Below are positions 15,998 through 31,646 of a stretch of DNA of 64,000 nt, in pieces. The notes under the pieces were generated by a model, which searched no databases, was not told the DNA's origin, and saw nothing but the letters and a program-made list of their open reading frames with translations. The stretch is from a phage. The stretch lies in sequence record OZ346201.1. One strand, 5' to 3'. Numbering within the stretch: the stretch's first letter is position 1; the number at the start of each line of letters is the position of its first letter. The translations under genes were made by a program, and so were the position numbers.

Positions 15998-16714
15998 ATG
16001 GCTACGCTTTATAGTGATATATTGATGGACCCACAAACAGGCGATTTGGCGATAGACAAAGGTCTTGAGTTGATAGATTCAAACCAAGTAAGTCTGCGCC
16101 AGCGCTTGTGGATGAGGTTTAATACGTGGAAGGGGAGCTGGTACTTTGACGAGTTGTTTGGCTTCCCTTATATGGACTTTCTCAGTAAGAAGGTCATGAA
16201 GACTGTTCTTGATAACAAGATCATGGAAGTGGCAAGACAAGAGCCGGATGTGCTAAACATCATAAACTTCCAGTCTACCATGGATCGAAGATCGAGAACA
16301 TACCAAGCGTTCTTTGAGGTTGTTACCAAAGAGAACGAGATTGTAAGACTGGCTTTCGTAGGTCTTGATCAGTTCGCCTACCCACAGCCTGATTCTGGGA
16401 CAACCTCTCTCTGTGATGATGAGGGTTGGATTAAGTGGGCTAATAAACTGTACTACCTGATCAACTTCAGATTACCTAGAACCGGAGATGCCACATGGTG
16501 GAACCAGTATGCTGGTCCTGAGATGGAAAACCCGATCCCTGTAGGCTCTCTGTTGACTCAGGATAAAGATCTGCTGATGACTGAGGCAGAACAAACCATT
16601 AACCGCAATACCTGGACGCTTGCTCCAGATGAGCGCGAATACTCTGGTGTTATTGCTACCTCCAATGATGAGGCTATTGCCAACCAGTCTGGTCGTGCTA
16701 TTGATGTTAACTAA
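15998..16714 (+). CDS. putative baseplate protein
   Basis: 238 aa, RBS AGAGGG; in baseplate cluster. Confidence 0.35.
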   Translation: MATLYSDILMDPQTGDLAIDKGLELIDSNQVSLRQRLWMRFNTWKGSWYFDELFGFPYMDFLSKKVMKTVLDNKIMEVARQEPDVLNIINFQSTMDRRSRTYQAFFEVVTKENEIVRLAFVGLDQFAYPQPDSGTTSLCDDEGWIKWANKLYYLINFRLPRTGDATWWNQYAGPEMENPIPVGSLLTQDKDLLMTEAEQTINRNTWTLAPDEREYSGVIATSNDEAIANQSGRAIDVN

Positions 16715-16723
16715 GGAGAAATC

Positions 16724-17392
16724 ATGGCTGTAGCTTATCCTACAATACCAATTCCAGATCTTGAAGATGCAGAAACAGTCCTGAGTGATGACTTCTTGGT
16801 TGTCAACCAGACTGATGGGACAAGAAAGGCTAAGATTGACGATGTTGTCAACGATCTTAGCATTACTAAGATAGTCTATTTCACAGAGGGTGGTTATCTT
16901 AAGAGCAAGAAGGACTTTGCTTATGACCCAGAAACTAAGCGCTACTACACGTGGAACGGGGATTATCCTAAAATAATCCTCCCAGACTCCACTGTAGAAG
17001 GTGCTGGGGGTGTGTCTGCAAATGCCTGGTCTGTTTTTGGCGAGCTTGCTGCAACTTCTTCTGGCAGAATAGTTGATTACGGATCTATCGGTGGTCAGCT
17101 TGATATGGATCTTGAAGTTGCGGATACCTTTAAGGTTCGACTAACTTCAAATACCACAATCTCTTTTGAAAATCAAACAGAAGGTCTTGAAGGGGTGGCG
17201 AGAACTATAACCGTATGCATTACTCAGACCTCTGGCGGCAACAAAGTCTATTGGCCTGGTAATGTTGAATGGTCCTACGGAAGAGATCCTATCCTAACAT
17301 TTACAGCTGGTGCAACAGACATTTTCAAGTTGGAAACCTACGACAACGGGTTAACTTGGTACGGGGCACTGATTATCGCAGGAGCTATCTAA
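16724..17392 (+). CDS. tail protein sharing the N-terminal domain of the 1272-aa fibre
   Basis: 222 aa; N-terminal 100 aa align with the N-terminus of the 20027..23845 product (DDxLVVxQxDxTRxxKIxDVV...F.EGG.L...DFAY...AW.V). Confidence 0.45.
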   Translation: MAVAYPTIPIPDLEDAETVLSDDFLVVNQTDGTRKAKIDDVVNDLSITKIVYFTEGGYLKSKKDFAYDPETKRYYTWNGDYPKIILPDSTVEGAGGVSANAWSVFGELAATSSGRIVDYGSIGGQLDMDLEVADTFKVRLTSNTTISFENQTEGLEGVARTITVCITQTSGGNKVYWPGNVEWSYGRDPILTFTAGATDIFKLETYDNGLTWYGALIIAGAI

Positions 17393-17393
17393 G

Positions 17394-19991
17394 ATGCGTA
17401 TTCAACACAACATTGATAACGTATTTCAGATGATTGAGGGGCACAGGAAGTGCCTCGATAACAACACAGGTATTACCAACACCCCTACACAAAATAAGCT
17501 AGTAAACCCTGATGGTCTTATAGCTGCAGGGTGGGCAGGTGATAAGATAAATAATGATTGGGCAATGCATGAGTCCCAAGCTGTGTTGATTCTGGGATAC
17601 ATTGAAGCATACAGGGCATCGAAAAGCGATTTCTATCTGGGTAGGGCAAAAGATGCTTGGGAAGCTTACAATAGCCATCTTCTGGGTGCATATGCAGTAG
17701 AAAGTAAAATGCAAAGATTGTCCCACTACCCCCTATCCACAGATGGGGTTCCATCACATGGTGGGTTTAAAGATGTGGTGGTGTCTTTTACCAACGGTAG
17801 AGGAAAAATCCCAGCTGGATCTCCGACATGGGGAGAATACCTTGACAAAGCATTCCAAGCGTATAACGGTGTGTTAGGAAGAAACACTGTAGACTCTGAT
17901 GTTTACGGTGGCACAGATGCTAACCCAGATTGGACAACATCCGGATTAAGTTGGTGGGTTGAGTGGTACATAGCATGGGATGGTAACCGCTATTGGGCTA
18001 ACGGTAGCATAGCCGACAGTGGTCATACGTCTGTAGAGTTCGGCACAATCCAATTACAAGATAAGGGTGTTACAGGCAGCCACAAGGTGACCTATTGTGT
18101 AAGATTACCTCAAGAGCAGGGCGGATCGGTGATACCTGCAGGATCCCCTGTAATTGTAAATCCTATAAACGTGGTTGCAGATAATCAGGCCCCAGAGTTG
18201 GACGGGGAAGAAATGTGGTGTGACGCTTGTTATCAACTCTACACCTTGACAGGTGAGGAAAAGTATTACACCGCGTTTAAACAGTCTTACAACAAATTGC
18301 TTAATTTCAGTGATATAAACGCCTACGACAAACTGTTTAGGAAGACCACGTTGATTAAGGCACCGTTTACAGATGGTACTTGCCTTGTTGCAGGAACAGT
18401 TCCTGCCATGAGCAGGGACAGTGACGGGTATATCAATTTTAGAATGAACGCACGCCAGCCTTGCGAAATAATTCAAAAAGGGACTACATACAAAATAGGC
18501 AGAGATGCTGAAATTGTTATGAATTTCGGAGGAGAAGGGGTTCTGTTCCAGCCACATTTCATCCTTAATGATGGCAACAATAACAAAAAACAGTACAGGA
18601 TAGGGGTTCCTTTTGGAGGGGCAGAGGTAACAGAAATAGTTGCCAAGGTTACTGATTTCGTAGAGGTAGTTGGTAAAGACGGTAATCCGTATCTCTTACC
18701 TAAAGAGGAAAACATTGTCGTAAGCGGTGGCGCTAGTGTTAGTATGCAGTATGATACCGACATTTACAACCACTCTGACAACTTCACCCGTTGTAATATA
18801 GCAAGAGGTAAAGTAACTTTCAATTTTGGGAGAGAGATTTCTTTAAACTCAGTAACTTATCGATCAGATGATGAGATGGTAAGGGTCAAATTTCTTGACA
18901 AAGATAGGTGGTTATGGTATGCTGATCTATATGCCACTAATGGACAATGGATAACAGAAACTCTTACTCTAGGAGATTTCAAACTAGATCCGACACAACC
19001 TCATCACACCGAAGAAGAGATTAAACCTTTCTTTGCTAATCCTAAGGGGCTCACCTCTGTAGATTTCAGCCTAAGCGACAGGCAGATAGGTAATGGCTTG
19101 TTTGATCTGTACTGCGTAAACACGCTGCCGCAGTTCTATATTGCAGATAGGGATGCTTATCTAATATGGTTTAGCGTATGGATGGCAAGCAAGACAGAAT
19201 CAACCGCTAAGGTTGGTGATTGCTATGTCAGAAACTACAAGCAAGGTGCATACAGGCACACACCAGGTGTGTTCCCTGCCGGAAAGGTGATAGATAAGGA
19301 AAACTATCTCTTAGAGGAAAAGCCAAATTGGCCCTACCCTGGCATGCAATACCCAGCAGTATACTGCATGGGTGCAGAAAACATAGATCGCCATAGATTG
19401 TCAAATACAATAGGCTTTCTGTATGACGCTCAAGTCTGGTATAATAATACATTTAAGACAGAGGGTCCAGTTGCCTCGCGTTATGTATGGCAGAGAGGTA
19501 ATGAAGGGCTGACTGGTTGGTGGGAGATGGTAGATAACTCTAAGCTCCAGTCAAGATCTTTTGTTGCTGCGTGCCGCACAATCTATGAGCTCAAGAAACA
19601 TAAAGAACCTGTTGATGAAAGATTATTCCTGTTCTGCCAGAAATGGGCATGGTTCCTCAACAGATTCCAGTCATCTCATTCAGGAAATCTGCCTACAGAC
19701 TTTAACACCTCTGGGGGATATTCTTATCAAGACAGAGGGGACAGGATGTGGGTGGTAGGTGAATGGCTTGCAGGTTGCTGCTGGCTAGGTCTGTGCGGGT
19801 ATTCAGAGACAATACCTCAAATAGACATTGTTGTAGAAGCCTGTATGAAGCTACTGCAAAAGCACCACTTCATCAATGGGGATAATGTTTTAAACGGCTG
19901 CTGGGCAGTTTCTGATCCGGTGGGCTATCACTCTGGCGAAATCCTTCGCGGTCTGGGCCTTTATGCTCAATACCGTGGATTGTACCTTTAA
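17394..19991 (+). CDS. large tail/baseplate protein, unknown function
   Basis: 865 aa, Trp/Tyr-rich; possible enzymatic domain but no motif recognised. Confidence 0.4.
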   Translation: MRIQHNIDNVFQMIEGHRKCLDNNTGITNTPTQNKLVNPDGLIAAGWAGDKINNDWAMHESQAVLILGYIEAYRASKSDFYLGRAKDAWEAYNSHLLGAYAVESKMQRLSHYPLSTDGVPSHGGFKDVVVSFTNGRGKIPAGSPTWGEYLDKAFQAYNGVLGRNTVDSDVYGGTDANPDWTTSGLSWWVEWYIAWDGNRYWANGSIADSGHTSVEFGTIQLQDKGVTGSHKVTYCVRLPQEQGGSVIPAGSPVIVNPINVVADNQAPELDGEEMWCDACYQLYTLTGEEKYYTAFKQSYNKLLNFSDINAYDKLFRKTTLIKAPFTDGTCLVAGTVPAMSRDSDGYINFRMNARQPCEIIQKGTTYKIGRDAEIVMNFGGEGVLFQPHFILNDGNNNKKQYRIGVPFGGAEVTEIVAKVTDFVEVVGKDGNPYLLPKEENIVVSGGASVSMQYDTDIYNHSDNFTRCNIARGKVTFNFGREISLNSVTYRSDDEMVRVKFLDKDRWLWYADLYATNGQWITETLTLGDFKLDPTQPHHTEEEIKPFFANPKGLTSVDFSLSDRQIGNGLFDLYCVNTLPQFYIADRDAYLIWFSVWMASKTESTAKVGDCYVRNYKQGAYRHTPGVFPAGKVIDKENYLLEEKPNWPYPGMQYPAVYCMGAENIDRHRLSNTIGFLYDAQVWYNNTFKTEGPVASRYVWQRGNEGLTGWWEMVDNSKLQSRSFVAACRTIYELKKHKEPVDERLFLFCQKWAWFLNRFQSSHSGNLPTDFNTSGGYSYQDRGDRMWVVGEWLAGCCWLGLCGYSETIPQIDIVVEACMKLLQKHHFINGDNVLNGCWAVSDPVGYHSGEILRGLGLYAQYRGLYL

Positions 19992-20026
19992 CATAGGGGG
20001 CTGTTTGCCCCCTTTCAGGAGAAAGA

Positions 20027-23000
20027 ATGGCTGATATTAAAGTTGTCAGAATTGAATCTCTTCCTGCCACTACCGCAGTGACAGAGGATGATTACCTGGT
20101 TGTTCAACAACCAGACCTGACCCGTCGTGTAAAAATTGGCGATGTTGTCCATGTGGATGGGACTGTTTCTCATGTAATCTCCTTTAAGGAAGGTGGTAAG
20201 TTAAACGGCCCAATGGATTTTGCCTATTTCGAAGAGGAAGATCTCTACCTGCGTTGGAAAGGCGAATTTCCACACACTGTTCCTGCACTATCTTCACCGT
20301 ACTCAGATGGTGGGATTACTGACGCTGCATGGATGGTATATACTGACCCGTCCCTAAGGGAGGAGCTGGAATCTACCATTGGCGCATCTATGATCATGAC
20401 AGCCGAAGGGCAGTCTGTCCAGGATGTAATGGATGTTACTGTTCAGACAGCTAACGATGCTAAAGCACTTGCACAGCGTGTAGATTTTGGTACGGTGCAC
20501 ACTGTAGGTGATGTTATTCACCTTGATAACTTTGTGGGTCCTGCAGTTATTGAAGAGGGAAGAACCACCAACTACCCTTCTGTAGCAGCTGGTGAAAAAT
20601 TTCTGAACGGTGTGGTATCTCGTCGTGATACTACAACTGTTGATGGTATTTTCCGTGGCGCTACCTCCGGAGCCATGTATACCATTGCAGTAACCAACGG
20701 TGTAGCAACAACAAAAAGAATAGCACTTCGTGATGAATTTAAACGCCTAGAGGCAAACAACCCAACAAGAACAGTTATCCGTGCTGGAGATGATTTAAAC
20801 ACGGCAGGGTACTTGCAGCTTGATGCAACAGGCCGTTGGGGTATGTGGAACCAACAAACAGCCTCGTGGCAACCTCTTGCTATAGAGCAAGGCGGTACAG
20901 GGGCCAGAGATGCCGCTGGAGTGCGTATCAATATTGGGGCTTTCTATAAGCAACGTGCAGCCCTTGAGCCCAATTTCAATATCAATAACTTGACTGGTAA
21001 TCAGGATGGTGTATACTACCAGCCGAGGACTGCTTATGCAACTGAGGCAAATGGTTACCCTGCAGGTTCTGGTGCTGGTCACTTGATTGTCTGGCAGAAC
21101 AATGCTAACGGAGGTACAGGTTGTCGTCAGGAATACTATCCATTCTCTAACGTAGATGTTTGGTATTTGAGAACCTATCAGGCCAACACAAACCAGTGGA
21201 CTGCATGGCAGCCGATGGTCAGACCTCGTAACGATGATACCTTCAGATCTCATATTGGTCTCGGGCCTAGAAATACCCCTACCTTCGGGCACATTTACCT
21301 GTCTCAAAGTTCTGCTGATGTTAAGTCAGCCTCGGGTATTGTTAACGGGGACAAATACAGCGCTGACGGTGTCCTTGAGCATGGATATAGGATCTATTCT
21401 GAGGTAAGAAACGACAATAAGGCTTGGCTGACAATCCACCTGCACAAAGGTGCAAAAGGATCTGAAACTCATAAATATTTAGGTTTCCGCGAAGACGGCG
21501 TATTAGACTGCCCTAAATATATGCAGGTTGGGGATCTTACTGGTCAGCTGACAAACTGGGGACTTGGAGAATGGATTCGTAGTTCAGGAGCAGAAAGAGG
21601 CTTCTGGGGGTCCAAGAAAGCCGCCAAGATGGTTATCTGGGATGGTGGGATGGACGAATCCGGTAACGGCACTCTGGAATGGGGTGTTTATAACAACCGG
21701 AAGGCCAAGTGGGAACCTCTACCTCAAGCCGCAGGTGGCACTGGGGCTACAACTTTAGCAGATGCTCAGAATCTGTTCAAAGTTCCTGTAGCGGCAGGCG
21801 TAAAAGACTTCTTAACACTGCCAAGAACTGCAGGAATGGAAGATGGGAAATACTACCCAATCATCGTTAGAACAGATCCGTATTACGCCCTTTCGACAGG
21901 TACAGATATTACTATAGTCACCAGGTCTTCATCTGGAAATGACCCTATGAACTGTGCCACCCTGCAGTGTCATTATAGAACTGGTGGCTGGACGGACAGG
22001 GGAGATTCTTTCCAAGGGGTTATTAATTTCTACCAAAACGAGAGAGCAATTCTTGGGTGTGTGGCTCCAACCAGAGGGAAGCAGGCGTATGTTGCATTCT
22101 ATGTTGAGGCGCGTGCTTTCCCTGTCAGTGTCTACGCAAGCAGAAACGTTCTTGAGGTATTTACCAGAGAAAATGACTGGCAGGTAGGGGATGTGACTAA
22201 CAACCAAAATGGTGTCAAGTTTTGCGCCCCTCTTGCGTCAGATAATTTAAGTCTTGCAATTAAAGGTGATGATGTAACAAACACCAGACCTCTTGCTGAG
22301 TTCAAGGGAACATCAGGGTTCTATACGGGTGGTGCTACAGGCTGGCACTATGTAGGCACACCTGACAGAATGGTTCTGATGAGTAAGACAGAGATGCCTC
22401 CTGTAGAGATGTGGTACAATGGTCTTAACTACATTTGCCCAGGTAGCCAAACCACTAGAAAAGCACTGTTCTCTAACGCAGGGTTCCAAGCTGCATCGGA
22501 AGGAACAGAGGATCTGATCAATAATACCTTTACCTCTAAATGCGGTAATGGTGCAAGACTGCAGGGACAGGCAGAGTTCAGATCCACCCCAGAGGCTGGT
22601 CAAGTTATTGTTCGTGATATTGTAGGCACAGCCCATAGATTCTACAACTTCAACAAAGATGGCACTTTCTCAGCTCCGGGCGGTTTTGTATGCCACACGG
22701 GTGCAGACTGGAACAACCAGTTTGGGCCTAACAACCCGTCAAAAATAATAGCTGGTAATGTTAACGGCCCACAAGATACCATGGTTGTAGGCGGGTTATC
22801 TGTAGGATTCTCGGGAAACTACGCTTTCCAGATTGCTGGCAGACAAAGTAACTTATACACCAGGTCTATAGAAGGTGGTAATCACCATCCCTGGAATAAG
22901 GCCATGCAACACAGGGGTCAAGGTCTTGGTTCTTCAGACCTTAACACCTATCACGGATTGTGGGAAGGTATTTACCATCAGCCTGCAAATAATGATGCAA

Positions 23001-23845
23001 CATATGATCGTCATTATCCCGTAAATGAGGCCGGAACACTTATTGTGTTGCAAAATAACGCCAATAACGGTAATGGGTGTGTTCAAGAGTATATTACCTA
23101 CCATGGCGATAGATTCACACGTTATGGGAATATGGTGAAACAGGTCTTCACTTGGGGCCCGTGGACTCAAACAGGTGGTAATGGTGTTAGCTTCAGGTAT
23201 GGAGGAACAACCCCAGAAGGGGAAATACCAACCCCAGAGTTAAAGGTGTATATTTCTGGAAGCCATGTTACTAATAACGGTGGCAACATGCCTGCTAATG
23301 CCGCCCATATGTATTATTGGGGTAACGGCAGCACAGGAGATCGTCCAAACGTGTTAGAGTTTAAGGTTCTTGACGAGTCTCAATCAAATTGGGTATGGCA
23401 TTGCGGTACCTTGCCGGATAAATCAAGATATCTTTCTGTAAACGGCGCTGTGAATTGCACATCTGTCAATCAGAGTTCTGACAGAGACCTGAAAGATAAC
23501 ATAGCTGTTATTCCTGATGCGTTAGAAGCTATCCGGAAGATGAAGGGTTATACTTACACTCTTAAAGAGAACGGTATGCCTTATGCAGGTGTTATAGCAC
23601 AAGAAGTGCTTGAAGCTCTGCCGGAAGCGGTTAGCTCTTTCGTGCAAAGAAAGGAAATCCCAAACCCTGATCAAGATGGAACTCCTTTGATAACAGAGGA
23701 AAGATTCTACAGCGTGGATTACGCAGCTGTAACAGGCTTGCTTGTCCAGGTTTGCAGGGAACAGGATGATAAAATAACCGCCCTTGAGGAGCAGGTTAAA
23801 AAATTGACAGAGGTTGTTACTGGGTTGCAAGAGAAATTGAAGTAA
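20027..23845 (+). CDS. tail fibre/tailspike with C-terminal intramolecular chaperone domain
   Basis: 1272 aa; C-terminal 120 aa (SDRDLKDNIAVIPDALEAIRKMKGYTYTLKE...coiled coil) match the autoproteolytic chaperone domain of endosialidase-type fibres (peptidase S74 family). Confidence 0.7.
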   Translation: MADIKVVRIESLPATTAVTEDDYLVVQQPDLTRRVKIGDVVHVDGTVSHVISFKEGGKLNGPMDFAYFEEEDLYLRWKGEFPHTVPALSSPYSDGGITDAAWMVYTDPSLREELESTIGASMIMTAEGQSVQDVMDVTVQTANDAKALAQRVDFGTVHTVGDVIHLDNFVGPAVIEEGRTTNYPSVAAGEKFLNGVVSRRDTTTVDGIFRGATSGAMYTIAVTNGVATTKRIALRDEFKRLEANNPTRTVIRAGDDLNTAGYLQLDATGRWGMWNQQTASWQPLAIEQGGTGARDAAGVRINIGAFYKQRAALEPNFNINNLTGNQDGVYYQPRTAYATEANGYPAGSGAGHLIVWQNNANGGTGCRQEYYPFSNVDVWYLRTYQANTNQWTAWQPMVRPRNDDTFRSHIGLGPRNTPTFGHIYLSQSSADVKSASGIVNGDKYSADGVLEHGYRIYSEVRNDNKAWLTIHLHKGAKGSETHKYLGFREDGVLDCPKYMQVGDLTGQLTNWGLGEWIRSSGAERGFWGSKKAAKMVIWDGGMDESGNGTLEWGVYNNRKAKWEPLPQAAGGTGATTLADAQNLFKVPVAAGVKDFLTLPRTAGMEDGKYYPIIVRTDPYYALSTGTDITIVTRSSSGNDPMNCATLQCHYRTGGWTDRGDSFQGVINFYQNERAILGCVAPTRGKQAYVAFYVEARAFPVSVYASRNVLEVFTRENDWQVGDVTNNQNGVKFCAPLASDNLSLAIKGDDVTNTRPLAEFKGTSGFYTGGATGWHYVGTPDRMVLMSKTEMPPVEMWYNGLNYICPGSQTTRKALFSNAGFQAASEGTEDLINNTFTSKCGNGARLQGQAEFRSTPEAGQVIVRDIVGTAHRFYNFNKDGTFSAPGGFVCHTGADWNNQFGPNNPSKIIAGNVNGPQDTMVVGGLSVGFSGNYAFQIAGRQSNLYTRSIEGGNHHPWNKAMQHRGQGLGSSDLNTYHGLWEGIYHQPANNDATYDRHYPVNEAGTLIVLQNNANNGNGCVQEYITYHGDRFTRYGNMVKQVFTWGPWTQTGGNGVSFRYGGTTPEGEIPTPELKVYISGSHVTNNGGNMPANAAHMYYWGNGSTGDRPNVLEFKVLDESQSNWVWHCGTLPDKSRYLSVNGAVNCTSVNQSSDRDLKDNIAVIPDALEAIRKMKGYTYTLKENGMPYAGVIAQEVLEALPEAVSSFVQRKEIPNPDQDGTPLITEERFYSVDYAAVTGLLVQVCREQDDKITALEEQVKKLTEVVTGLQEKLK

Positions 23846-23852
23846 CTGTTTT

Positions 23853-23880
23853 GCCCTCGCTTCGGCGGGGGCTTTTTGTT
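23853..23880 (+). terminator. intrinsic terminator after fibre gene
   Basis: GCCCTCGC-TTCG-GCGGGGGC followed by TTTTTGTTTG. Confidence 0.65.
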
Positions 23881-23884
23881 TGTA

Positions 23885-23913
23885 TTGCGTATTAACTCAA
23901 AATCTGGTAAAAT
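23885..23913 (+). promoter_or_regulatory. sigma70-like promoter TTGCGT-N17-TAAAAT
   Basis: -35 TTGCGT, 17-nt spacer, -10 TAAAAT in GGTAAAATAAC context. Confidence 0.45.
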
Positions 23914-23944
23914 AACTATCATGATTGTTTAACCCGGAGGCACA

Positions 23945-24535
23945 ATGTTTTTATGGGAAAGGCCTAGATACCTTCCAGATATTAGATTGGAGCTGCTGGC
24001 AGATATTGTTACGTTTAAAAGTCCGTTTACAGGTAAAACGCAAAAAGTAACCTATGCCACACCTAATTGGAAAGGCACTTTGACGGTCTCTAATATCAGC
24101 GAGTCACAGTTGTTAGAGCTTAAGAGCTTTGTTGATCAGGTGTATAAAGATGGAAACATCTTTCTTATTAAAACTTACGGTCACTCAGTAACAGCTAATG
24201 AGCCAATCGCCCTGGGGCCTACTGGTAACGACGATTTTTTGAAGACGGTTGGGTGGGAGCCAAACAGAGACATAGCTAGAGCTGGCGATAAAATATCTGT
24301 CAATGATGAGTTGAAAGTGGTAACAGCTCCAGTGCGCAGCGATGGTGTTGGGGCTGCTGTTATAAGCATATCTCCAAGACTTAGAAAACCTATTGCCGCA
24401 GGGGACACTATGAAGATAATAACTCAATCCCCGAAGGGTAGGTTTCATATCAGAGATATTCATAAAATTAAGCAAAAAGTCGATGCTATGCAAAAAGGTG
24501 ATAATATAGTTATCAACTTCTTTGAGGATTTCTAA
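23945..24535 (+). CDS. putative minor tail protein (tip module)
   Basis: 196 aa, RBS GGAGG; first gene of a four-gene block ending in the J-like protein. Confidence 0.4.
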   Translation: MFLWERPRYLPDIRLELLADIVTFKSPFTGKTQKVTYATPNWKGTLTVSNISESQLLELKSFVDQVYKDGNIFLIKTYGHSVTANEPIALGPTGNDDFLKTVGWEPNRDIARAGDKISVNDELKVVTAPVRSDGVGAAVISISPRLRKPIAAGDTMKIITQSPKGRFHIRDIHKIKQKVDAMQKGDNIVINFFEDF

Positions 24536-24536
24536 G

Positions 24537-25088
24537 ATGATCAGAGCGCCATTAGATAATTTATTTCTTGAAAAGCTGGAGCTTGATGGTGTTGAGATTT
24601 TAATTGCTGCAAAGCTAGAGCTACCGACAGGAACTGTCAGGGTGTGCTCAGGCACTGGTGTGGTAGTAATTGAGGGGCAACATTTTATAGGGATAGGTGG
24701 ATCAGCAACATTAACTGCTGTGTCTGAGAAAGATGCCACCAACTTCGGATCTGTGGTAGCGACATTGAACGGGTTTGATCCTAAGTATGTGGGTGATCTG
24801 CTGAAGACGGAGTATTCTGGTTGTCGTGCTACGTTGTACATTACCGCTATGGAGAATGGTCTGCCTGTTACAACTAATGGCTTGTTTGACGGCCTTATAA
24901 CAGATATGGCTATTCAGACAGGTGAGAATAGTGCTTTGTCCATATCCATCTCTTCCATCTTCAACAGTTGGTTAAGAGGTTTTCCTTATCGGTACACGGA
25001 GGAAAGCCACAGCTCAAGAAACGATAATGACAGATTTTTTAAATATGTGGATCAGGTGGCGAGCCGCCCGATCATTTGGGAGGTTTAA
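24537..25088 (+). CDS. putative minor tail protein (lambda gpL-like position)
   Basis: Track ORF starts at a TTG at 24522; ATG 24537 after GAGGA is preferred. Confidence 0.4.
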   Translation: MIRAPLDNLFLEKLELDGVEILIAAKLELPTGTVRVCSGTGVVVIEGQHFIGIGGSATLTAVSEKDATNFGSVVATLNGFDPKYVGDLLKTEYSGCRATLYITAMENGLPVTTNGLFDGLITDMAIQTGENSALSISISSIFNSWLRGFPYRYTEESHSSRNDNDRFFKYVDQVASRPIIWEV

Positions 25089-25513
25089 TGAGCACACACC
25101 CTCGTTTAGTGGATTGGCAAGAAAGATTGTGGAAAGTGTTTGACGAAGAGGCCACCATACCTTTTGAATGGGGATTCCACGATTGTTGCACCTTTGCAGC
25201 TAAGTGTGTTGATGCCCAATACGGAACAGATTTTCTTTCTAACTTCGAAGGAACGTATAAAACAGAGTTGGAAAGCAAAAGATGGTGCATGCTTCGTTTC
25301 AAAACTACACACCTGCCTACTATTTTTGATCTCTTTATGACTCGACTGGATACTCCTAAACAGGTTCAGCGTGGCGATATTGTTATTTTCGAAGGTCTGA
25401 ACGGGCTCACCGCTGGTGTGTTCTGGAACAACCAGATTTGGGCGAAAGGTGATAAAGGGGTCTTTATGTTCGACATGAAAGATTCTATCGTTGTTGATGT
25501 CTGGAGGTATTGA
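25088..25513 (+). CDS. putative tail protein (lambda gpK-like position)
   Basis: Track ORF starts at a TTG at 25076; ATG 25088 after GGGAGG, overlapping the upstream stop (TAATG). Contains an HDCC motif. Confidence 0.35.
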   Translation: MSTHPRLVDWQERLWKVFDEEATIPFEWGFHDCCTFAAKCVDAQYGTDFLSNFEGTYKTELESKRWCMLRFKTTHLPTIFDLFMTRLDTPKQVQRGDIVIFEGLNGLTAGVFWNNQIWAKGDKGVFMFDMKDSIVVDVWRY

Positions 25514-28500
25514 TGCCAATTGCAATGATTGATAACATCGTTGCTTCTGCAAGATCTTCAAGTTATGACTGGAACGCATCCAAGGCAGCTCTGGCTGACA
25601 GCCTGAACACTGTGACCACCAGAACTTTGGATAAGATTTTTGAGGGCAACAAATCTTACAGAAGTCAGCAAGATAGACAAAAGCTTCTCAGATCTTCTGC
25701 TGCACCTTGCTCTGTAGTGTATGGAAAGACACGCACATCTGGATTGCTTGCGTTTTTGGAGCAGGATAGCGACAGAACCCTCCATTGTGCTATTGTTCTT
25801 GCCAATCACCCTCTGGAAGGTATAGAAGATATACTTATCGACGGTAATCCTATTTCCTCGTATGGAGATCTGGTATCGTGGGAGCTACATAACGACAGAA
25901 AAACATCTGATCCTTTCATGGGTACACACTGCCCATCATGGTCACCTGACATGATAGGTAGAGGGATCAGTTGGCTACGTGCCAGCTTCAGGTTTGACCC
26001 TAACAAGTTTCCTTTTGGGTTGCCAAACGTTACACTCGTCAAGATTGGTAAAAAATGCTATGATCCTCGTATCAGTAAAGAGGTGTACACCAATAACGCT
26101 GCCTTGGTGATCCTAGACTATTTAAGAACGTACCTTAAATGTCCTGACGAAACCATCAACTGGGAGTCCTTCAAGGAGGCTGCCAACATATGCGACGAGG
26201 CGGTAAAAAACGCAGACGGAACCAGTGAGCGCCGTTACACCATTAACGGTGAGTTTGACATGGATGAGGCCCCAGCAAGTATTATGGCAGAAATGCTGAA
26301 AGCTTGCGGTGCAGATCTTAGTTATGTTGCTGGTAAGTATGGTTTGCTGGTTGGTGCATACTATGGCCCAGCAACAATGACACTTAGTGAGGACTGTGTC
26401 TGTGGTGAGGTTAAGATCTATCCGGAAGCCTCATTTGACAAAAGATCCAACACAATAACTGGCAGATTCACTAGCCCGACCAAAGGGTATTCTGAAACAG
26501 ATTTTCCATCAGTGTTTGTCCCAGAGTGGATAGAGAAGGATGGAGAAAGAAAGATAATCGATATAGATTATCGCTTTGTTACCAGTCCTTATCAAGCTCA
26601 GCGTGTTTCTGCAATCTTCCTAAGACGTGCTAGAGCTGGCAGGATTATTGAAGTCACCTGCAATATGCGAGGTTTTAAATTTAAGCCTGGCCGTTATGTT
26701 ACAATGGACCTCCCAAGTATTGGTATCGTGGGCCAAGAAATGAGGGTTCTTGAATGGGAGTTCACCAAAAAGGGCGGTGTCAAGGTAAAACTTCGTCAAG
26801 ATGCTAAAGAGTGGAATGATGCCACAGGGCAACTTCCGGATTCCGGCGATGTAGATATTCCGATATCCCCGTCCGGTGTAGCTCAGCCGCAAAACTTCAG
26901 ATACTCCGTTCTCCAAGCTGGGGAAGTAACTCACGGTGTTTTGGCCTGGGACAACGTTGGGACTTACGCTCAAAATATTGTGCAGGTAAGAAAGAACGGA
27001 GAGATTGTTTGGACAGCACAGACAGTTGAGCAGTTTGTCCGTGTTGAAGGTCTGACTAAAGGTTCCTACACAGCCACTGTTGTTGCAACATCTTATAAAG
27101 GTGGTGTATCTCCAGAAGCGTATTGTGAGTTTAACATTCAGGCACCTGAAGCTCCGGTTTCTGTAGAGGTTAAGCAAGGATACTTTGCTATCACCTTGAT
27201 TCCGCATAGTAGGGATTTAGCAAGTGTTAGCACCCAGTATGACTTTTGGACATCCGGTATGACAAGGTTGCCCGACACCAGTGATGCAACCGTTACTTCA
27301 AACGCCACCCGTATGGGTGTTGGTTCAACTTGGACATCTGAAGGTCTGCAGAACGATAAGGTTTATTATTGGTATATTCGAACCACAAACGCTTTTGGTA
27401 GTTCTCAGTTTGTAGAATGCGCTGCACGCTGCTACACCTCTATTGAGGATTTGATGCCTCAGATAGATGCTGAATTCAAAAAGACAGAAACTTATAAAGA
27501 GTTGATGAGCACTTTGGATTCCTCTATTGAAGAGGTTGAAAATCGTGTCACAGAACTTAACAGGTACATGGATGGTAGGGTAGATGAGGCATTCCAGCAA
27601 CTTGGAGACAGAATAGGTGCGGTAGTTACAGAGACAACTCAGAAGTTTGAGGATGTCAATGGCAATATCACAGCGCTGGATAGGAAACTTGTTGCTGCAC
27701 AGAACAAGTTCACCAACGATCTGAACACTGAAAGTGGAAGATTGGCATCCCTGATTGAGACAACCAATAAAGCAACTACTGATCTTCTGAACAAAAAGAC
27801 AGAGGCTTTAGATGAGAAATTGGTTGCCGCCAAAGGTGAGCTGGTAGAGCAGATAGAGGGAGTTGAGAGCGGGTATTTAGCCGGAGATAAAACTCTGGAT
27901 GGTAAGATCAATACTCAGAGAACAGAACTTGACGCAAGCATCTTGAGCACTAACCAGGCCACTGTGGATCTTTTGAACAGGACATCTGAAACTCTGGATC
28001 AAAAGATTAGTCAGACAAACGCGACGGTATTTAAAAACTATACCACCCTTGACGGCAAGATAACTACCGCAAAAACTGACCTCAACACCTTGATTGCCAA
28101 TACCAACAAGGCCACCACTGACTTGTTGAATCAGAAAACATCTGCACTGTCAGAGCAGATAACTTCTGCACGTGGGGAGATTTCTACCAACAAGCAAGCG
28201 ATTGATGCTTTGGATGGAAAACTGACCTCCACAAAAACAGCGCTGGATGCTACAATTTCCGATACCAATAAAGCCACTGTGGATCTTATCAACGGCACAG
28301 CGTCAGCTATTCGTCAAGAACTTGCTGTTGCTAAGCAGGAGATCATTGATGATGTTGGGGATGTGTCTGAGATCAGGGCTGCAGTAGCTACAACATCTAA
28401 GGCTGTAACCGACTTAGAGGGTAAAGTAAATGCTCAATGGGGCACAAAAATACAGGTAGACTCCGCAGGGAATAAATATGTTGCAGGTATTCAGTTGGGG

Positions 28501-29352
28501 ATGGAAGGGTCTGGAGGCCAAGTTCAATCCTACTTCATGGTTAGCGCAAACAATTTTGCGGTATACAACCCTGGCAATGGAACAGCAACCCTTGCTTTCG
28601 CAATCAAGAACAACCAAGCGTTCTTGAAAGACGCTTTTATAGAGAATGGCACGATCTCCTCTGCCAAGATTGCACAAGAAATTTCGTCAAACAACTACGA
28701 TGGCAACGGGTACCATAAATACGGTTGGTATATTAACAAGAACGGGCACGCCCAATTTATGGATGTGTGGGTGAAAGGCAACATCAACGCCAGTTCTGGT
28801 AACTTCACAGGGGCAGTTAACGCCACTAGTGGTACCTTCCGTGGGGATGTTTATGCCAATAATGGTAGCTTTAGAGGCACCATAGATGCAACCGGAGGTA
28901 CCTTCCGTGGTCGTGTAGAAGCTTCTGTTATCCGCGCTAACCAGTTCGAAGGTGCAATTGTTGCACACAGGACTTACGGAGATTGTGCTCCAGTATATAA
29001 CTCCCAGCAAAGGGTTTGCCGTTGGAGGTGGAGATACGTAGATAACGTTTCAGGTCAGGGTAAGAACGTAACATTCTTCTTTAAACTGAATGGTACTCTT
29101 GCCAGCTCTCAGCTTAACGTTTGGATAGCCGGACATCAAATCCTTGCAGGTAAGAAGTACGGAAACGACAACAACGGCATGTGTGCGGTAGGGATAACGG
29201 GTCTTGGTGAACAAACCATAGATATTGTTGTTGAAATCTACACACCATGGTCAACGTCTTCTGTAACAGGGGTCGCAATATCCTGTCCTACTGTTGTGGT
29301 AAGCCGTTCTAACTCTAGTTTCCAAGGACCTTGGAACGAGTCTCACGACTAA
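25513..29352 (+). CDS. host-specificity / central tail fibre protein (lambda J-like)
   Basis: About 1279 aa from ATG 25513 after GGAGG. N-terminal region typical of J-like tip proteins, central 55-aa imperfect repeats, C-terminal Gly/Asn-rich beta-type region (GNFTGAVNATSGTFRGDVYANNGSFRGTIDATGGTFRG). Confidence 0.6.
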   Translation: MPIAMIDNIVASARSSSYDWNASKAALADSLNTVTTRTLDKIFEGNKSYRSQQDRQKLLRSSAAPCSVVYGKTRTSGLLAFLEQDSDRTLHCAIVLANHPLEGIEDILIDGNPISSYGDLVSWELHNDRKTSDPFMGTHCPSWSPDMIGRGISWLRASFRFDPNKFPFGLPNVTLVKIGKKCYDPRISKEVYTNNAALVILDYLRTYLKCPDETINWESFKEAANICDEAVKNADGTSERRYTINGEFDMDEAPASIMAEMLKACGADLSYVAGKYGLLVGAYYGPATMTLSEDCVCGEVKIYPEASFDKRSNTITGRFTSPTKGYSETDFPSVFVPEWIEKDGERKIIDIDYRFVTSPYQAQRVSAIFLRRARAGRIIEVTCNMRGFKFKPGRYVTMDLPSIGIVGQEMRVLEWEFTKKGGVKVKLRQDAKEWNDATGQLPDSGDVDIPISPSGVAQPQNFRYSVLQAGEVTHGVLAWDNVGTYAQNIVQVRKNGEIVWTAQTVEQFVRVEGLTKGSYTATVVATSYKGGVSPEAYCEFNIQAPEAPVSVEVKQGYFAITLIPHSRDLASVSTQYDFWTSGMTRLPDTSDATVTSNATRMGVGSTWTSEGLQNDKVYYWYIRTTNAFGSSQFVECAARCYTSIEDLMPQIDAEFKKTETYKELMSTLDSSIEEVENRVTELNRYMDGRVDEAFQQLGDRIGAVVTETTQKFEDVNGNITALDRKLVAAQNKFTNDLNTESGRLASLIETTNKATTDLLNKKTEALDEKLVAAKGELVEQIEGVESGYLAGDKTLDGKINTQRTELDASILSTNQATVDLLNRTSETLDQKISQTNATVFKNYTTLDGKITTAKTDLNTLIANTNKATTDLLNQKTSALSEQITSARGEISTNKQAIDALDGKLTSTKTALDATISDTNKATVDLINGTASAIRQELAVAKQEIIDDVGDVSEIRAAVATTSKAVTDLEGKVNAQWGTKIQVDSAGNKYVAGIQLGMEGSGGQVQSYFMVSANNFAVYNPGNGTATLAFAIKNNQAFLKDAFIENGTISSAKIAQEISSNNYDGNGYHKYGWYINKNGHAQFMDVWVKGNINASSGNFTGAVNATSGTFRGDVYANNGSFRGTIDATGGTFRGRVEASVIRANQFEGAIVAHRTYGDCAPVYNSQQRVCRWRWRYVDNVSGQGKNVTFFFKLNGTLASSQLNVWIAGHQILAGKKYGNDNNGMCAVGITGLGEQTIDIVVEIYTPWSTSSVTGVAISCPTVVVSRSNSSFQGPWNESHD
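27740..28380 (+). repeat. intragenic imperfect tandem repeats in J-like gene
   Basis: Four 50-60-aa units of pattern TNKATxDLLNxKTxxLxxxI...LDGKxxTxxTxLDA; corresponding DNA repeats seen near 27770, 28100 and 28260. Confidence 0.5.
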
Positions 29353-29457: not shown

Positions 29458-30948
29458 GTGGCTAAGTATGGATTGACAGAGGCTGGTTTCGTTATACCAA
29501 CCCTAAATGACCTAATCGTTGAAACTAAGCAAAGCCTGATCCGTGCTTTTGGCGAAAACTTCAACGTACAGAGTAACTCCGTTGCAGATAAGCTGACCAC
29601 TATCTTCAACGAGCGAGAGTATCAACTTATTCTTATGGCAGCATCTGTATACGCATCACAGACGCTGTATGGGGCAGAAGGTATTTACCTGGATGAGCTT
29701 CTTGGAAGACAGGGTATTTACCGAAGAGGCCGTTCTAAATCATCAGGTACCTGCCAGTTGACAATCAACACAACTGTGCCGTACAATATGATTTATGATT
29801 CCAAAACTTATACGCTGGATAGTGGCAACTTTGTTCTTAGCAATGATGTGCAGGTGGCAGGGAATCTTATTGCCCACAGAATAAATGCTCCAGACCTAAG
29901 GATTGGTAAATACAACTTTCAAATCACCAACCAGACAGATGGAAGTATCAAAACAAAAAGTCTGGTTTTAACAGATAAGTCTCTGGACTCCTCTGATCTG
30001 CCAAGCTTTTACGGAGAGATTAAGCAGTTCATTGTCGATAATACAACCCTGTTGAACGACGATTTGATTCAGATCGATATGTTGACAGGAACGTTGTGGA
30101 TAGGGTACAATTCGAATCTTGATCAAGTTGGACTTAATAGTAGGGTAGATTTCAGAGTATCTCCGATTGTAGGGGAAAGAACTATCACCCTAGATGTTAT
30201 CGCTAACGAGGCTGGTGAGCTGTCAAGAGAGGCAGAAACCGTGACAACAATGTCACCTACTCCCAGTGGATTTATCAAGCTTACCAACAGAGAAAGATTC
30301 AATGAGGGCAGGGATGTTGAGAAAGACTCAGAGTATCGCTTAAGAGCTTCCAGCACAAAACAGTTAACATCGAAGGCTACCCGTCCTGCAATCCTTAGCG
30401 CTGTAAGCGAGGTGAAAGGTGTTGAGAAAGTGAGAGTGTTCTCCAACAACACTGATAAAACTGATGCTAAAGGTATACCTCCTTACAAGTTCCAAGTGGT
30501 TGTGTTTGGTGGTGCAACGGAGGACATTTGCCAAGCACTTTACCAAACTATAGCCTGTACGAACAGGACTTATGGTAATATTTTCTACGATGTCACTACA
30601 TCTGACGGTCAAACTGAAAGAATTTATTACTCCAAGGCAAATACCTACCGCTTAGATGTAAGAATTACCTACTCCGGTGCTGCGCTTTCCACAACCGAAA
30701 AAGATGCCATTGTAGAGGCTCTTTTGCAGGTTGTTAACGGACTGGATGTTGCAGATACGTTATACAATATCCAATTGGTCGGTGCTGCATCCGCTGCTGT
30801 GTCAATAGGCAGATTTAATAGACTGGTAATTCAAGTTAAACCAGTAGGAGCTTCTGATGAAGCTTACACTACAAACGATATTGTTGCGAACATGACCGAG
30901 GTGTTTGACCTCGACGAAAGTAATATAACTTTCCAACAAACTATTTAA
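29458..30948 (+). CDS. baseplate wedge protein (baseplate J-like, putative)
   Basis: 496 aa, GTG start after GGAGGAG; size and position upstream of an I-like gene and fibre genes. Confidence 0.45.
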   Translation: MAKYGLTEAGFVIPTLNDLIVETKQSLIRAFGENFNVQSNSVADKLTTIFNEREYQLILMAASVYASQTLYGAEGIYLDELLGRQGIYRRGRSKSSGTCQLTINTTVPYNMIYDSKTYTLDSGNFVLSNDVQVAGNLIAHRINAPDLRIGKYNFQITNQTDGSIKTKSLVLTDKSLDSSDLPSFYGEIKQFIVDNTTLLNDDLIQIDMLTGTLWIGYNSNLDQVGLNSRVDFRVSPIVGERTITLDVIANEAGELSREAETVTTMSPTPSGFIKLTNRERFNEGRDVEKDSEYRLRASSTKQLTSKATRPAILSAVSEVKGVEKVRVFSNNTDKTDAKGIPPYKFQVVVFGGATEDICQALYQTIACTNRTYGNIFYDVTTSDGQTERIYYSKANTYRLDVRITYSGAALSTTEKDAIVEALLQVVNGLDVADTLYNIQLVGAASAAVSIGRFNRLVIQVKPVGASDEAYTTNDIVANMTEVFDLDESNITFQQTI

Positions 30949-30959
30949 GGCGGCGAGAT

Positions 30960-31646
30960 ATGGCAGAGATTAAGTCGGATGTTAACCACATCCACACTCT
31001 GCCAGATTTTGTTCAGGGAGGTCTTGACTACCTACCTGGAGATTTTCTGGCTGAGAAGGTTAATTTAGTCACATTCTTAACCGTATACCTTAAAAGGTTG
31101 GAGGATGTTGATAAGATGCTGGTAGGTTTGGCTGAAGGAAGATTGCTTAACAATGCCAGCGGAAGATACCTTGACGAAGTTGGTAATCAACTTGGTATTC
31201 TTAGGAATGGACTTTCAGATGCTGATTTTCGTGCCACACTAATTATTCAGCAGGCCGCAGCATCAAGGGGCGGGACTCGCGAAGATGTCATCTCCACCTT
31301 GCGACAATTGTTCGGAAGAGACAATTTCGATACGTGGAAAGGAGACAACTTCAGGTTTGACATAAATATTAGAAAAACTTGCTTTGACATATTGCAGTCT
31401 ATCGATCAGATCTTAGATATGCTACCATTGCCTTGTCATTTGCGTCTTACAGAATCGCAAGGGCAAGCTTTTGGTTTTGAAGGGGACTCTACAGCTCTGG
31501 GCTTCGGATCAGTGTGGGAAGAAAACCAATTCGGAGTTGGTGGGCTGGCTACTTTGCTATATGTTCCTGACGTAAGACCTGATTGGGACACCACAACCAT
31601 TTATTGTGAAAGTATTACAGTAAACGCAACTAGACAGGAGGGTTAA
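30960..31646 (+). CDS. putative baseplate/tail protein (P2 gpI-like position)
   Basis: 228 aa; follows the J-like wedge gene. Confidence 0.35.
   Translation: MAEIKSDVNHIHTLPDFVQGGLDYLPGDFLAEKVNLVTFLTVYLKRLEDVDKMLVGLAEGRLLNNASGRYLDEVGNQLGILRNGLSDADFRATLIIQQAAASRGGTREDVISTLRQLFGRDNFDTWKGDNFRFDINIRKTCFDILQSIDQILDMLPLPCHLRLTESQGQAFGFEGDSTALGFGSVWEENQFGVGGLATLLYVPDVRPDWDTTTIYCESITVNATRQEG

Follow-up and report, generated by a model that had tools for sequence, protein, structure and literature searches.

The locus described here raises the question of why two different tail proteins begin alike, and what that shared beginning is for. In the phage sequence OZ346201.1, of which a stretch of 64,000 nucleotides (the window) was analyzed, the genes for a short protein of 222 residues and a fiber of 1272 residues lie on either side of a gene for a large tail protein. 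The 8 kb around them (window 16000–24000) are 99.0% identical in nucleotide sequence to Escherichia phage MaxBurger (Bas54) and 96.3% identical to phage rV5. The same 8 kb match 124 phage records, nearly all Vequintavirus; judged by its sequence, the source phage is a Vequintavirus, an rV5-like E. coli myophage. We refer to the products of the three genes by the names of their rV5 homologs: gp43 (the short protein), gp42, and gp41 (the fiber). Phages like rV5, PVP-SE1, and phi92 carry an unusually large fiber set, and both the BASEL paper and the phi92 structure paper of 2026 (PMC13450770) say that the genes behind each fiber are not clear. The value of the locus is a testable gene-to-fiber assignment in a phage group where that assignment is still open. 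The general pattern, a conserved N terminus with a swappable C terminus, is familiar and is the usual phage route to several parts on one baseplate. We put at about even the chances that gp43 and gp41 are two appendages of a single gp43-gp42-gp41 module, which dock side by side through the plug of the same bipartite N-terminal module, with gp43 as a platform for gp42.

The Shared N-Terminal Module and Its Two Parts

BLASTP aligned residues 8–105 of gp43 with residues 7–105 of gp41 (38/99 identical, 1 gap, 70.9 bits, E = 4e-18). A preliminary description of the window had proposed that the first ~100 residues of the two proteins correspond; this is borne out at 38% identity, and the motifs it listed (DD.LVV.Q.D.TR..KI.DVV, F.EGG.L, DFAY, and AW.V) are all present in the alignment. 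Each half of the module is significant alone. In shuffling tests, the first 45 residues scored 75 against 22.8 ± 4.5 and residues 46–110 scored 109 against 23.9 ± 4.7, and none of 20,000 shuffles reached the real score in either case. No third open reading frame (ORF) in the 64-kb window bears the module (next best BLAST match, E = 0.44). A profile of the first 45 residues (the anchor profile, built from 10 anchors) matched only the gp43 and gp41 ORFs of the window. The similarity is already partly recorded in databases, as PVP-SE1 gp49 carries the GenBank label "fusion protein similar to rV5 gp043 at N-terminus."

The N-terminal ~100 residues consist of two modules, a lineage-specific anchor, or plug (residues 1–45), and a generic connector (residues 46–105). 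The connector is the Pfam domain Tail_spike_N (PF18668), also named the TSP1/Gp66 N-terminal domain, which was found at residues 51–105 of gp43 (40.9 bits) and 46–103 of gp41 (41.0 bits) with a gathering cutoff of 25 bits. In an AlphaFold2 (AF2) model of gp43 residues 1–115, residues 47–106 have a predicted local distance difference test score (pLDDT) of ~75; the AF2 models used here are monomers from shallow alignments (word-indexed protein searches gave 4, 13, and 7 matches). The modeled segment has the fold of a tailspike domain, and Foldseek matched it to 6nw9, 4qnl, 4oj5, 9d84, and 5w6h (E ~1e-4, probability 1.0), with TSP1, TSP3, and TSP4 of CBA120 and gp63.1 of G7C as counterparts. The best PDB sequence match of both N-terminal modules was Sf11 gp13 (PDB 9OCC; E = 2.6e-5 and 1.2e-10). 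Other PDB sequence matches were CBA120 TSP1, TSP3, and TSP4, G7C gp63.1, and B2 gp48, and Tail_spike_N is internal in all of them. The anchor belongs to no Pfam family and is predicted by AF2, at low confidence, as a β-hairpin and a short helix.

In Sf11 gp13, residues 4–59 dock and Tail_spike_N occupies residues 68–124 (PMC12724387). Docking is assigned to the anchor here because, in solved tailspikes, Tail_spike_N lies downstream of the docking part. Within the module, only residues 1–45 are particular to this phage group, and they probably form the docking element. The shared stretch had been taken initially for a common attachment domain. That view stands insofar as the module forms the extreme N terminus of two virion proteins and heads many unrelated C termini; gp41, gp42, and gp43 were all found in rV5 virions by proteomics (PMC3606486). 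It does not stand for the whole ~100 residues, since residues 46–105 are generic PF18668. The docking parts of the Tail_spike_N proteins compared here are unrelated to the anchor in sequence. In the siphophage Sf11, N-terminal helices of gp13 form a bundle with a helix of the distal tail protein. The docking segments of the branched complexes of CBA120 (TSP1–4), G7C (gp63.1/gp66), and B2 (gp48/gp49) lie upstream of Tail_spike_N and belong to Ackermannviridae and Schitoviridae, not to a Vequintavirus baseplate. A P22-type head-binding domain was also considered. P22-type N-terminal similarity was reported at an HHpred probability of 96.3 in the 2013 rV5 study (PMC3606486). We rejected it because no such Pfam family was found at E ≤ 0.1 and P22 was absent from the PDB sequence and fold matches.

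The anchor is confined to phages that have this set of baseplate genes, and it occurs independently of Tail_spike_N. The connector is missing from phi92 gp140 and JohannJBalmer 0024 (157 aa), which consist of the anchor and a C-terminal "knob" (see below), and from the phi92 endosialidase gp143, in which the anchor is followed by End_N_terminal, catalytic, and S74 domains. It is also missing from the anchor-bearing P8734_14 (730 aa) and P8734_16 (275 aa, with S74). In PD06_103 and P8734_15, a spacer of ~40 residues separates the anchor from Tail_spike_N. An exhaustive HMMER search found the full N-terminal module at the head of proteins of 518–1481 aa with unrelated C-terminal parts (β-helix, colanidase-like, and alternative gp41 alleles). 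The same N terminus on unrelated bodies is the mark of modular receptor-binding proteins, and the bodies found here comprise the knob, fiber, endosialidase, colanidase-like, β-helix, and S74-only forms. The cargo differs within a fixed slot beside the baseplate genes in rV5-like phages, PVP-SE1, GAP31, LNA4, phi92, PD06, ALITA, and P8734.

Direct counterparts of the three genes, in the same order and with the same baseplate neighbors, are gp140/gp141/gp143 of phi92 (Justusliebigvirus) and gp51/gp50/gp49 of PVP-SE1 (Seunavirus). As here, a knob protein and an exchangeable receptor-binding protein share the ~45-residue anchor, and phi92 gp141 and PVP-SE1 gp50 are gp42 homologs. phi92 differs in that its two anchor-bearing proteins lack the connector and a fiber gene, gp142, is inserted between gp141 and gp143. 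The C-terminal body is an endosialidase in phi92 and colanidase-like in PVP-SE1, in contrast to the long S74-chaperoned fiber of the present phage. In PVP-SE1, GAP31, and LNA4, the gene for a knob protein comes first, then one for a gp42-like protein, then one for an anchor plus colanidase-like protein, with wedge genes directly downstream. In Klebsiella phage P8734, whose baseplate genes come in the same order, three successive genes encode anchor-bearing proteins, and neither a gp42-like nor a knob sequence was found in the whole 146,651-bp genome. The partner of the anchor is therefore not gp42 or the knob.

Genomes carry from 1 to 3 anchor-bearing proteins. Within PVP-SE1, GAP31, and P8734, the anchors of one genome are 53–58% identical to each other, above their identity to positional counterparts in other genera. 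Tail_spike_N similarity, unlike that of the anchors in these genomes, follows orthology. The elevated within-genome identity fits the idea that both anchors track a single partner.

Three further observations concern the module and the fiber. phi92 gp151 (L014:19320-21281) has Tail_spike_N at residues ~24–77 and no anchor, and presumably attaches elsewhere than gp140 and gp143. Erwinia phage M7 gp041 (L010:5552-6286) and SPFM22_139 (L011:4497-4970) have N termini that look anchor-like by eye (h-x-h-x-x-L ... D-h-h-h-V ... K-h-S); matches of the anchor profile to them were insignificant (E 0.2–2). The plug may have an earlier origin and a broader distribution than the profile can detect. Within gp41, residues ~340–375 and ~1000–1035 look alike by eye (AGHLIVWQNNANGGTGCRQEY and AGTLIVLQNNANNGNGCVQEY). 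Self-BLAST of gp41 found no internal repeats at E < 1e-3, these two segments included. Shorter gp41 alleles in the databases (617, 827, and 988 aa) have the first several hundred residues in common with gp41 and then diverge, and in one of them the two segments seem to have been joined.

The gp43 Knob, Its Partner Gene, and Host Dependence

The C-terminal ~110 residues of gp43 were modeled by AF2 as an all-β domain, the knob (pLDDT ~80). gp43 matches the PHROG 7760 profile over its full length (E = 4e-119), and its residues 110–221 match the C-terminal ends of PHROG 9017, 32568, 22179, and 27998 (E = 1e-13 to 1e-24). The knob motif, LxLxQGxGxNKVxWPxxIKW..., is strongly conserved in phages of Escherichia, Salmonella, Cronobacter, Erwinia, and others. 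When lineages were examined by way of gp42 homology, the knob was encoded immediately upstream of a gp42-like gene in 8/8; the pairing was seen in Vequintavirus, Seunavirus (three times), Justusliebigvirus, a jumbo Seoulvirus, Kolesnikvirus, Rosemountvirus, and a 42-kb podophage. Within a pair, the stop of the first gene abuts or overlaps the start of the second, and the N termini of the knob proteins differ by lineage. In the present phage, the start codon of gp42 is 1 nt past the stop of gp43, and its Shine-Dalgarno sequence lies within the gp43 gene. Homologs of gp42 occur in 525 phage records. gp42 itself has no Pfam or PDB sequence match and no match to the anchor profile. A look at Vibrio phage Peru-2 and a literature search on GAP227-like podophages yielded nothing that bears on gp42 or the knob.

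The closest solved fold of the knob by Foldseek is the trimeric spike gp52 of Pa223 (PDB 9NY6, E = 4e-4), and the phi92 authors remarked on the resemblance of gp140 to the same protein (PMC13450770). Pa223 gp52 is a spike at the three-fold of a podophage capsid, with a long triple β-helix; gp43, in contrast, lies among baseplate genes, has Tail_spike_N in place of the triple β-helix, and is coupled to gp42. The knob also shows a tentative resemblance, with moderate scores, to branching or attachment domains of CBA120 TSP4 and T4-like gp9. In the branching adaptors CBA120 TSP2 and TSP4 and G7C gp66, gp10-like (XD) domains take up the N termini of other spikes; a Pfam scan detected no T4 gp10-like domain in gp43, gp42, or gp41. 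From its sequence relationships, gp43 is probably not a truncated fiber and would serve as an adaptor or platform for gp42. Both "adaptor" and "alternative, truncated fiber" had been offered at the outset. The second is contradicted by a C-terminal domain that is conserved and tied to an adjacent gp42-like gene across very different phages. The first is reasonable, as the knob resembles fiber-attachment domains and its gene is the constant upstream neighbor of the gp42-like genes examined.

Two other explanations of gp43 were rejected. The MaxBurger label "sialidase domain protein" has no counterpart in the Pfam sialidase families, and sialidase matches in Foldseek were insignificant (E > 6). 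gp43 and gp42, 1 nt apart and in different frames, are not a frameshift fusion: the knob ends at its own stop, and the two genes are separate in 8/8 lineages. The 1456-position PHROG 2871 profile merely reflects longer gp42 homologs. The knob domain occurs in 3–5 copies within very long proteins (1389–2036 aa; P0017, P0018, P0021, and P0028). Among the 3,100 database representatives that match gp43, it also forms the C terminus of many small proteins. The domain is widespread and, with no Pfam match, apparently uncurated.

Published transposon mapping (HIDEN-SEQ) was run on Bas54, which is 99% identical to the present phage (bioRxiv 10.1101/2025.11.20.689424). In the reference library, 7/47 TA sites were hit in gp43 ("Essential"), 94/189 in gp42, and 154/238 in gp41 (both "Intermediate"). 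In the list presumed to be the K-12 re-passage, the corresponding numbers were 0/47, 29/189, and 6/238. In the clinical-isolate list, 14/47 sites were hit in gp43, from codon 3, and insertions occurred throughout gp42 and, from codon 4, throughout gp41. Mean counts on K-12 versus the isolate were 0.0 versus 17.8 (gp43), 3.1 versus 52.1 (gp42), and 0.2 versus 16.6 (gp41), all significant. Genes bas54_0028–0031 behaved in the opposite way, going from ~40–85 on K-12 to ~0 on the clinical isolate, where they are essential (all values from bioRxiv 10.1101/2025.11.20.689424). The sheet title and the command line of the HIDEN-SEQ data name different isolates.

gp43, gp42, and gp41 thus behave together as a single adsorption module that is conditional on the host. 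gp43 is dispensable for building infectious particles, and on K-12 it matters at least as much as the fiber gp41 and more than gp42. The idea that the N-terminal module of gp41 is structurally required by itself, from an insertion-free gp41 N terminus in one of the lists, was discarded: that list is sparse, and the other lists have insertions from codon 4.

Proposed Arrangement on the Baseplate

In the arrangement that we propose, a single host-conditional adsorption module would have gp43 and gp41 as distinct appendages, each presumably a trimer. The ~45-residue plug, specific to Vequintavirinae and Stephanstirmvirinae, would dock proteins on this type of baseplate, either at the wedge periphery or on a neighboring plug, and Tail_spike_N would link the docking segment to whatever body comes next. 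The fiber gene occupies an exchangeable receptor-binding slot, in which the plug of relatives is followed by a colanidase, an endosialidase, or β-helix depolymerases. As a platform, the short protein would hold the anchor-less gp42 on the particle, and it might lend support to the fiber as well. gp43 and gp41 would then stand side by side in six copies each, rather than compete.

Co-occupation of neighboring sites by gp43 and gp41 is plausible. In phi92, each wedge carries three fiber sets at six-fold positions; fibers I and III sit on the wedge protein gp145, and fiber II joins the base of fiber I (PMC13450770). The assignment of density was confident for gp147 and tentative for gp143, and the identity of fiber II is described as unresolved (PMC13450770). 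Low-resolution maps of the Bas54 fibers exist (PMC12143355), and the available maps include EMD-51869 for Bas54, EMD-51868 for Bas49, and the phi92 baseplate maps. By analogy, the two-fiber arrangement of Bas63 is a precedent for co-occupation. The long and short tail fibers of Bas63/Felix O1 have a common N-terminal baseplate-binding domain, and a small trimeric T4 gp9-like platform, gp25 in Bas63, mediates one of the attachments. The Bas63 fiber domains share a fold without apparent sequence similarity, in contrast to the 38% identity seen here.

The proposed arrangement gives a testable wiring diagram for one fiber set, in which the 45-residue plug marks the proteins on one type of site, the knob protein is the constant partner of a gp42-like enzyme, and the three genes form one host-conditional module. 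The plug boundary would be a natural junction for host-range engineering. A bolder version, which we consider doubtful, makes the anchor a universal plug for one conserved socket type on the baseplates of Vequintavirinae and Stephanstirmvirinae and gp43 a gp9-like hub of a branched organelle built from gp43, gp42, and gp41, with two plug-bearing trimers touching at each wedge. If it is true, the fiber I and II densities of phi92 and Bas54 would be assigned to specific genes, and these broad-host-range phages could readily be re-targeted by way of the plug.

Several observations weigh against the arrangement we propose. A PDB sequence search found no solved structure of the anchor even at E ≤ 10, and AF2 models residues 1–46 as a monomer at a pLDDT of only ~30. 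The anchor pairs of rV5-like phages (40%) and phi92 (32%) are no more alike than cross-genus pairs. The pairing of knob and gp42 was sampled starting from gp42 homologs, and in two distant metagenomic knob proteins the next gene is not gp42-like. On K-12, gp43 insertions are worse tolerated than gp42 insertions (0/47 versus 29/189, ~4e-4 by binomial arithmetic); gp43 therefore does more than carry gp42, and such a role fits a hub at least as well as a platform. The transposon data themselves have limits, as insertions can be polar, insertions at the 3′ end of the gp44 gene upstream behave like gp43 insertions, and the matching of the three per-site lists to hosts was inferred from matching sums.

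The main rival is that only gp43 docks, with gp42 bound to the knob and gp41 packing its N-terminal module against that of gp43 or onto gp43. The order of severity on K-12, gp43 ≥ gp41 > gp42, looks as if loss of gp43 were loss of both others, and the TSP4 and gp9 domains that the knob resembles serve branching and attachment. phi92-like phages may lose the second plug-bearing gene and always keep the knob protein. We nevertheless regard this rival as unlikely: the three plug-bearing proteins of P8734 occur without a gp43-like knob protein, so the plug can work without gp43, the severity of gp43 insertions may reflect polarity on downstream genes, and contact between the N-terminal modules is hypothetical. 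Side-by-side docking, as proposed here, also has to be set against the option, named beside co-occupation in the preliminary description, that the two proteins compete for the same baseplate site. They would then alternate in one socket, and particles would be mixed, with the short protein capping the sites free of fiber. Both proteins do carry the same plug, and other myophages are known to vary in fiber occupancy, as with the long tail fiber of Bas63. For a fiber that matters on K-12, removal of a competitor should help or be neutral, yet gp43 insertions are the least tolerated of the three genes there, which is the opposite of the prediction and argues against competition for one site. With all three phi92 fiber sets at six-fold positions, a number of plug-bearing proteins that varies between genomes, and a conserved partner gene belonging to gp43 itself, we consider competition very improbable.

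It is also possible that the two proteins have no common partner, and that domain shuffling has given them a generic trimerizing or connector N terminus. Tail_spike_N occurs on podophage, siphophage, and myophage tailspikes with quite different attachment partners, and the common baseplate-binding fold of the Bas63 fibers binds wedge 2A in one case and the gp9-like platform in the other. We judge this quite unlikely, as the similarity is equally strong in residues 1–45, outside the Pfam domain, the anchor is limited to phages with this baseplate gene set whether or not Tail_spike_N is present, and within-genome anchor similarity is raised in three genomes. The least probable of the alternatives, in our view, is that gp43 is an independent miniature receptor-binding protein whose knob binds a surface ligand of K-12, its adjacency to gp42 being operon organization only. 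The closest solved fold belongs to Pa223 gp52, a trimeric spike that stands by itself and whose distal knob may aid adsorption according to its authors, gp43 is required on K-12 and not on another host, and the MaxBurger annotation names a sialidase domain. This would be hard to reconcile with a knob that is strongly conserved across phages of many hosts, unlike host-specific receptor-binding tips, and that was always beside a gp42-like gene in the lineages sampled; the sialidase label, as noted, has no support from Pfam.

The Locus and Its Neighbors

The features of the locus are listed in Table 1. The range first singled out in the preliminary description, 16724–20400, contains the short gene, the entire gene of 865 codons, and the first ~125 codons of the fiber gene. 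Homologs of gp43, gp42, and gp41 lie between the genes for baseplate hub, spike, and gp44 on one side and further tail and wedge genes on the other. The wedge proteins are encoded at window positions ~29458–30948 and 30960–31646. The GC-rich hairpin between the gp42 and fiber genes fails the criteria of the terminator scan and was not called as a terminator.

Table 1. Coordinates of genes, domains, and hairpins around the shared-module genes (positions in the window)
Feature	Position	Strand	Basis
gp44 homolog, 238 aa, baseplate protein directly upstream of the short gene	15998..16714	+	ORF, annotation, PHROG 4233/120
Short protein, 222 aa (rV5 gp43 / Bas54_0025 homolog): anchor, Tail_spike_N, C-terminal β knob	16724..17392	+	
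Short-protein anchor, aa 1–45: MAVAYPTIPIPDLEDAETVLSDDFLVVNQTDGTRKAKIDDVVNDL	16724..16858	+	Alignment with fiber aa 1–45, z ~11.6
Short-protein Tail_spike_N (PF18668) connector, aa ~46–105	16859..17038	+	Pfam, AF2, Foldseek
Short-protein all-β knob, aa ~115–222, conserved partner domain of gp42-like genes	17066..17389	+	
gp42 homolog, 865 aa, large tail protein without anchor, between short and fiber genes	17394..19991	+	PHROG 2871
GC-rich hairpin GGGGGC-TGTTT-GCCCCC, then TTTC, between gp42 and fiber genes	19996..20012	+	Read from sequence
Fiber, 1272 aa (rV5 gp41 / Bas54_0027 homolog): anchor, Tail_spike_N, long shaft, S74 chaperone	20027..23845	+	PHROG 6578
Fiber anchor, aa 1–45: MADIKVVRIESLPATTAVTEDDYLVVQQPDLTRRVKIGDVVHVDG	20027..20161	+	
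Fiber Tail_spike_N (PF18668), aa ~46–105	20162..20341	+	Pfam; PDB matches Sf11 gp13, CBA120 TSPs
Fiber Peptidase_S74 intramolecular chaperone domain, aa 1151–1202	23477..23632	+	Pfam PF13884, E = 8.5e-14
Strong intrinsic-terminator-like hairpin and T-run directly 3′ of the fiber gene	23853..23882	+	Terminator scan

The phi92 counterpart of gp44, gp139, is named the sheath initiator in the phi92 structure paper (PMC13450770). Residues ~206–238 of the gp44 homolog exceed the 204-position PHROG profile and the PVP-SE1 and phi92 homologs (205–211 aa), which the Vequintavirus protein surpasses in length by ~30 residues. In the clinical-isolate list of the Bas54 data, insertions in gp44 occur only from codon ~204, with up to 2303 reads; on K-12 the 3′ part is free of insertions. 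The pattern points to a tail that can be dispensed with, to polarity on gp43–gp41, or to both.

Eighteen GenBank records (MG0656xx) named "Campylobacter phage" (host C. jejuni) are ~96% identical to window 16000–24000. Other "Campylobacter phage" records match phi92-like phages, and the host labels look doubtful.

The baseplate genes of rV5 carry Felix O1-like annotation. Downstream of the fiber gene, at window positions ~23945–29352 (+ strand), a lambda/PY54-like tail-tip set lies within the myophage baseplate cluster. It comprises a distal-tail-protein-like gene, a "tail protein," a hydrolase, and a 1279-aa J-like protein, which are homologs of rV5 gp40–gp37. The counterparts of rV5 gp40–gp37 in Bas54 are dispensable on K-12, with 48/50, 28/35, 17/18, and 180/221 sites hit. 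The tail-tip set is the mirror image of gp43–gp41 in its host dependence.

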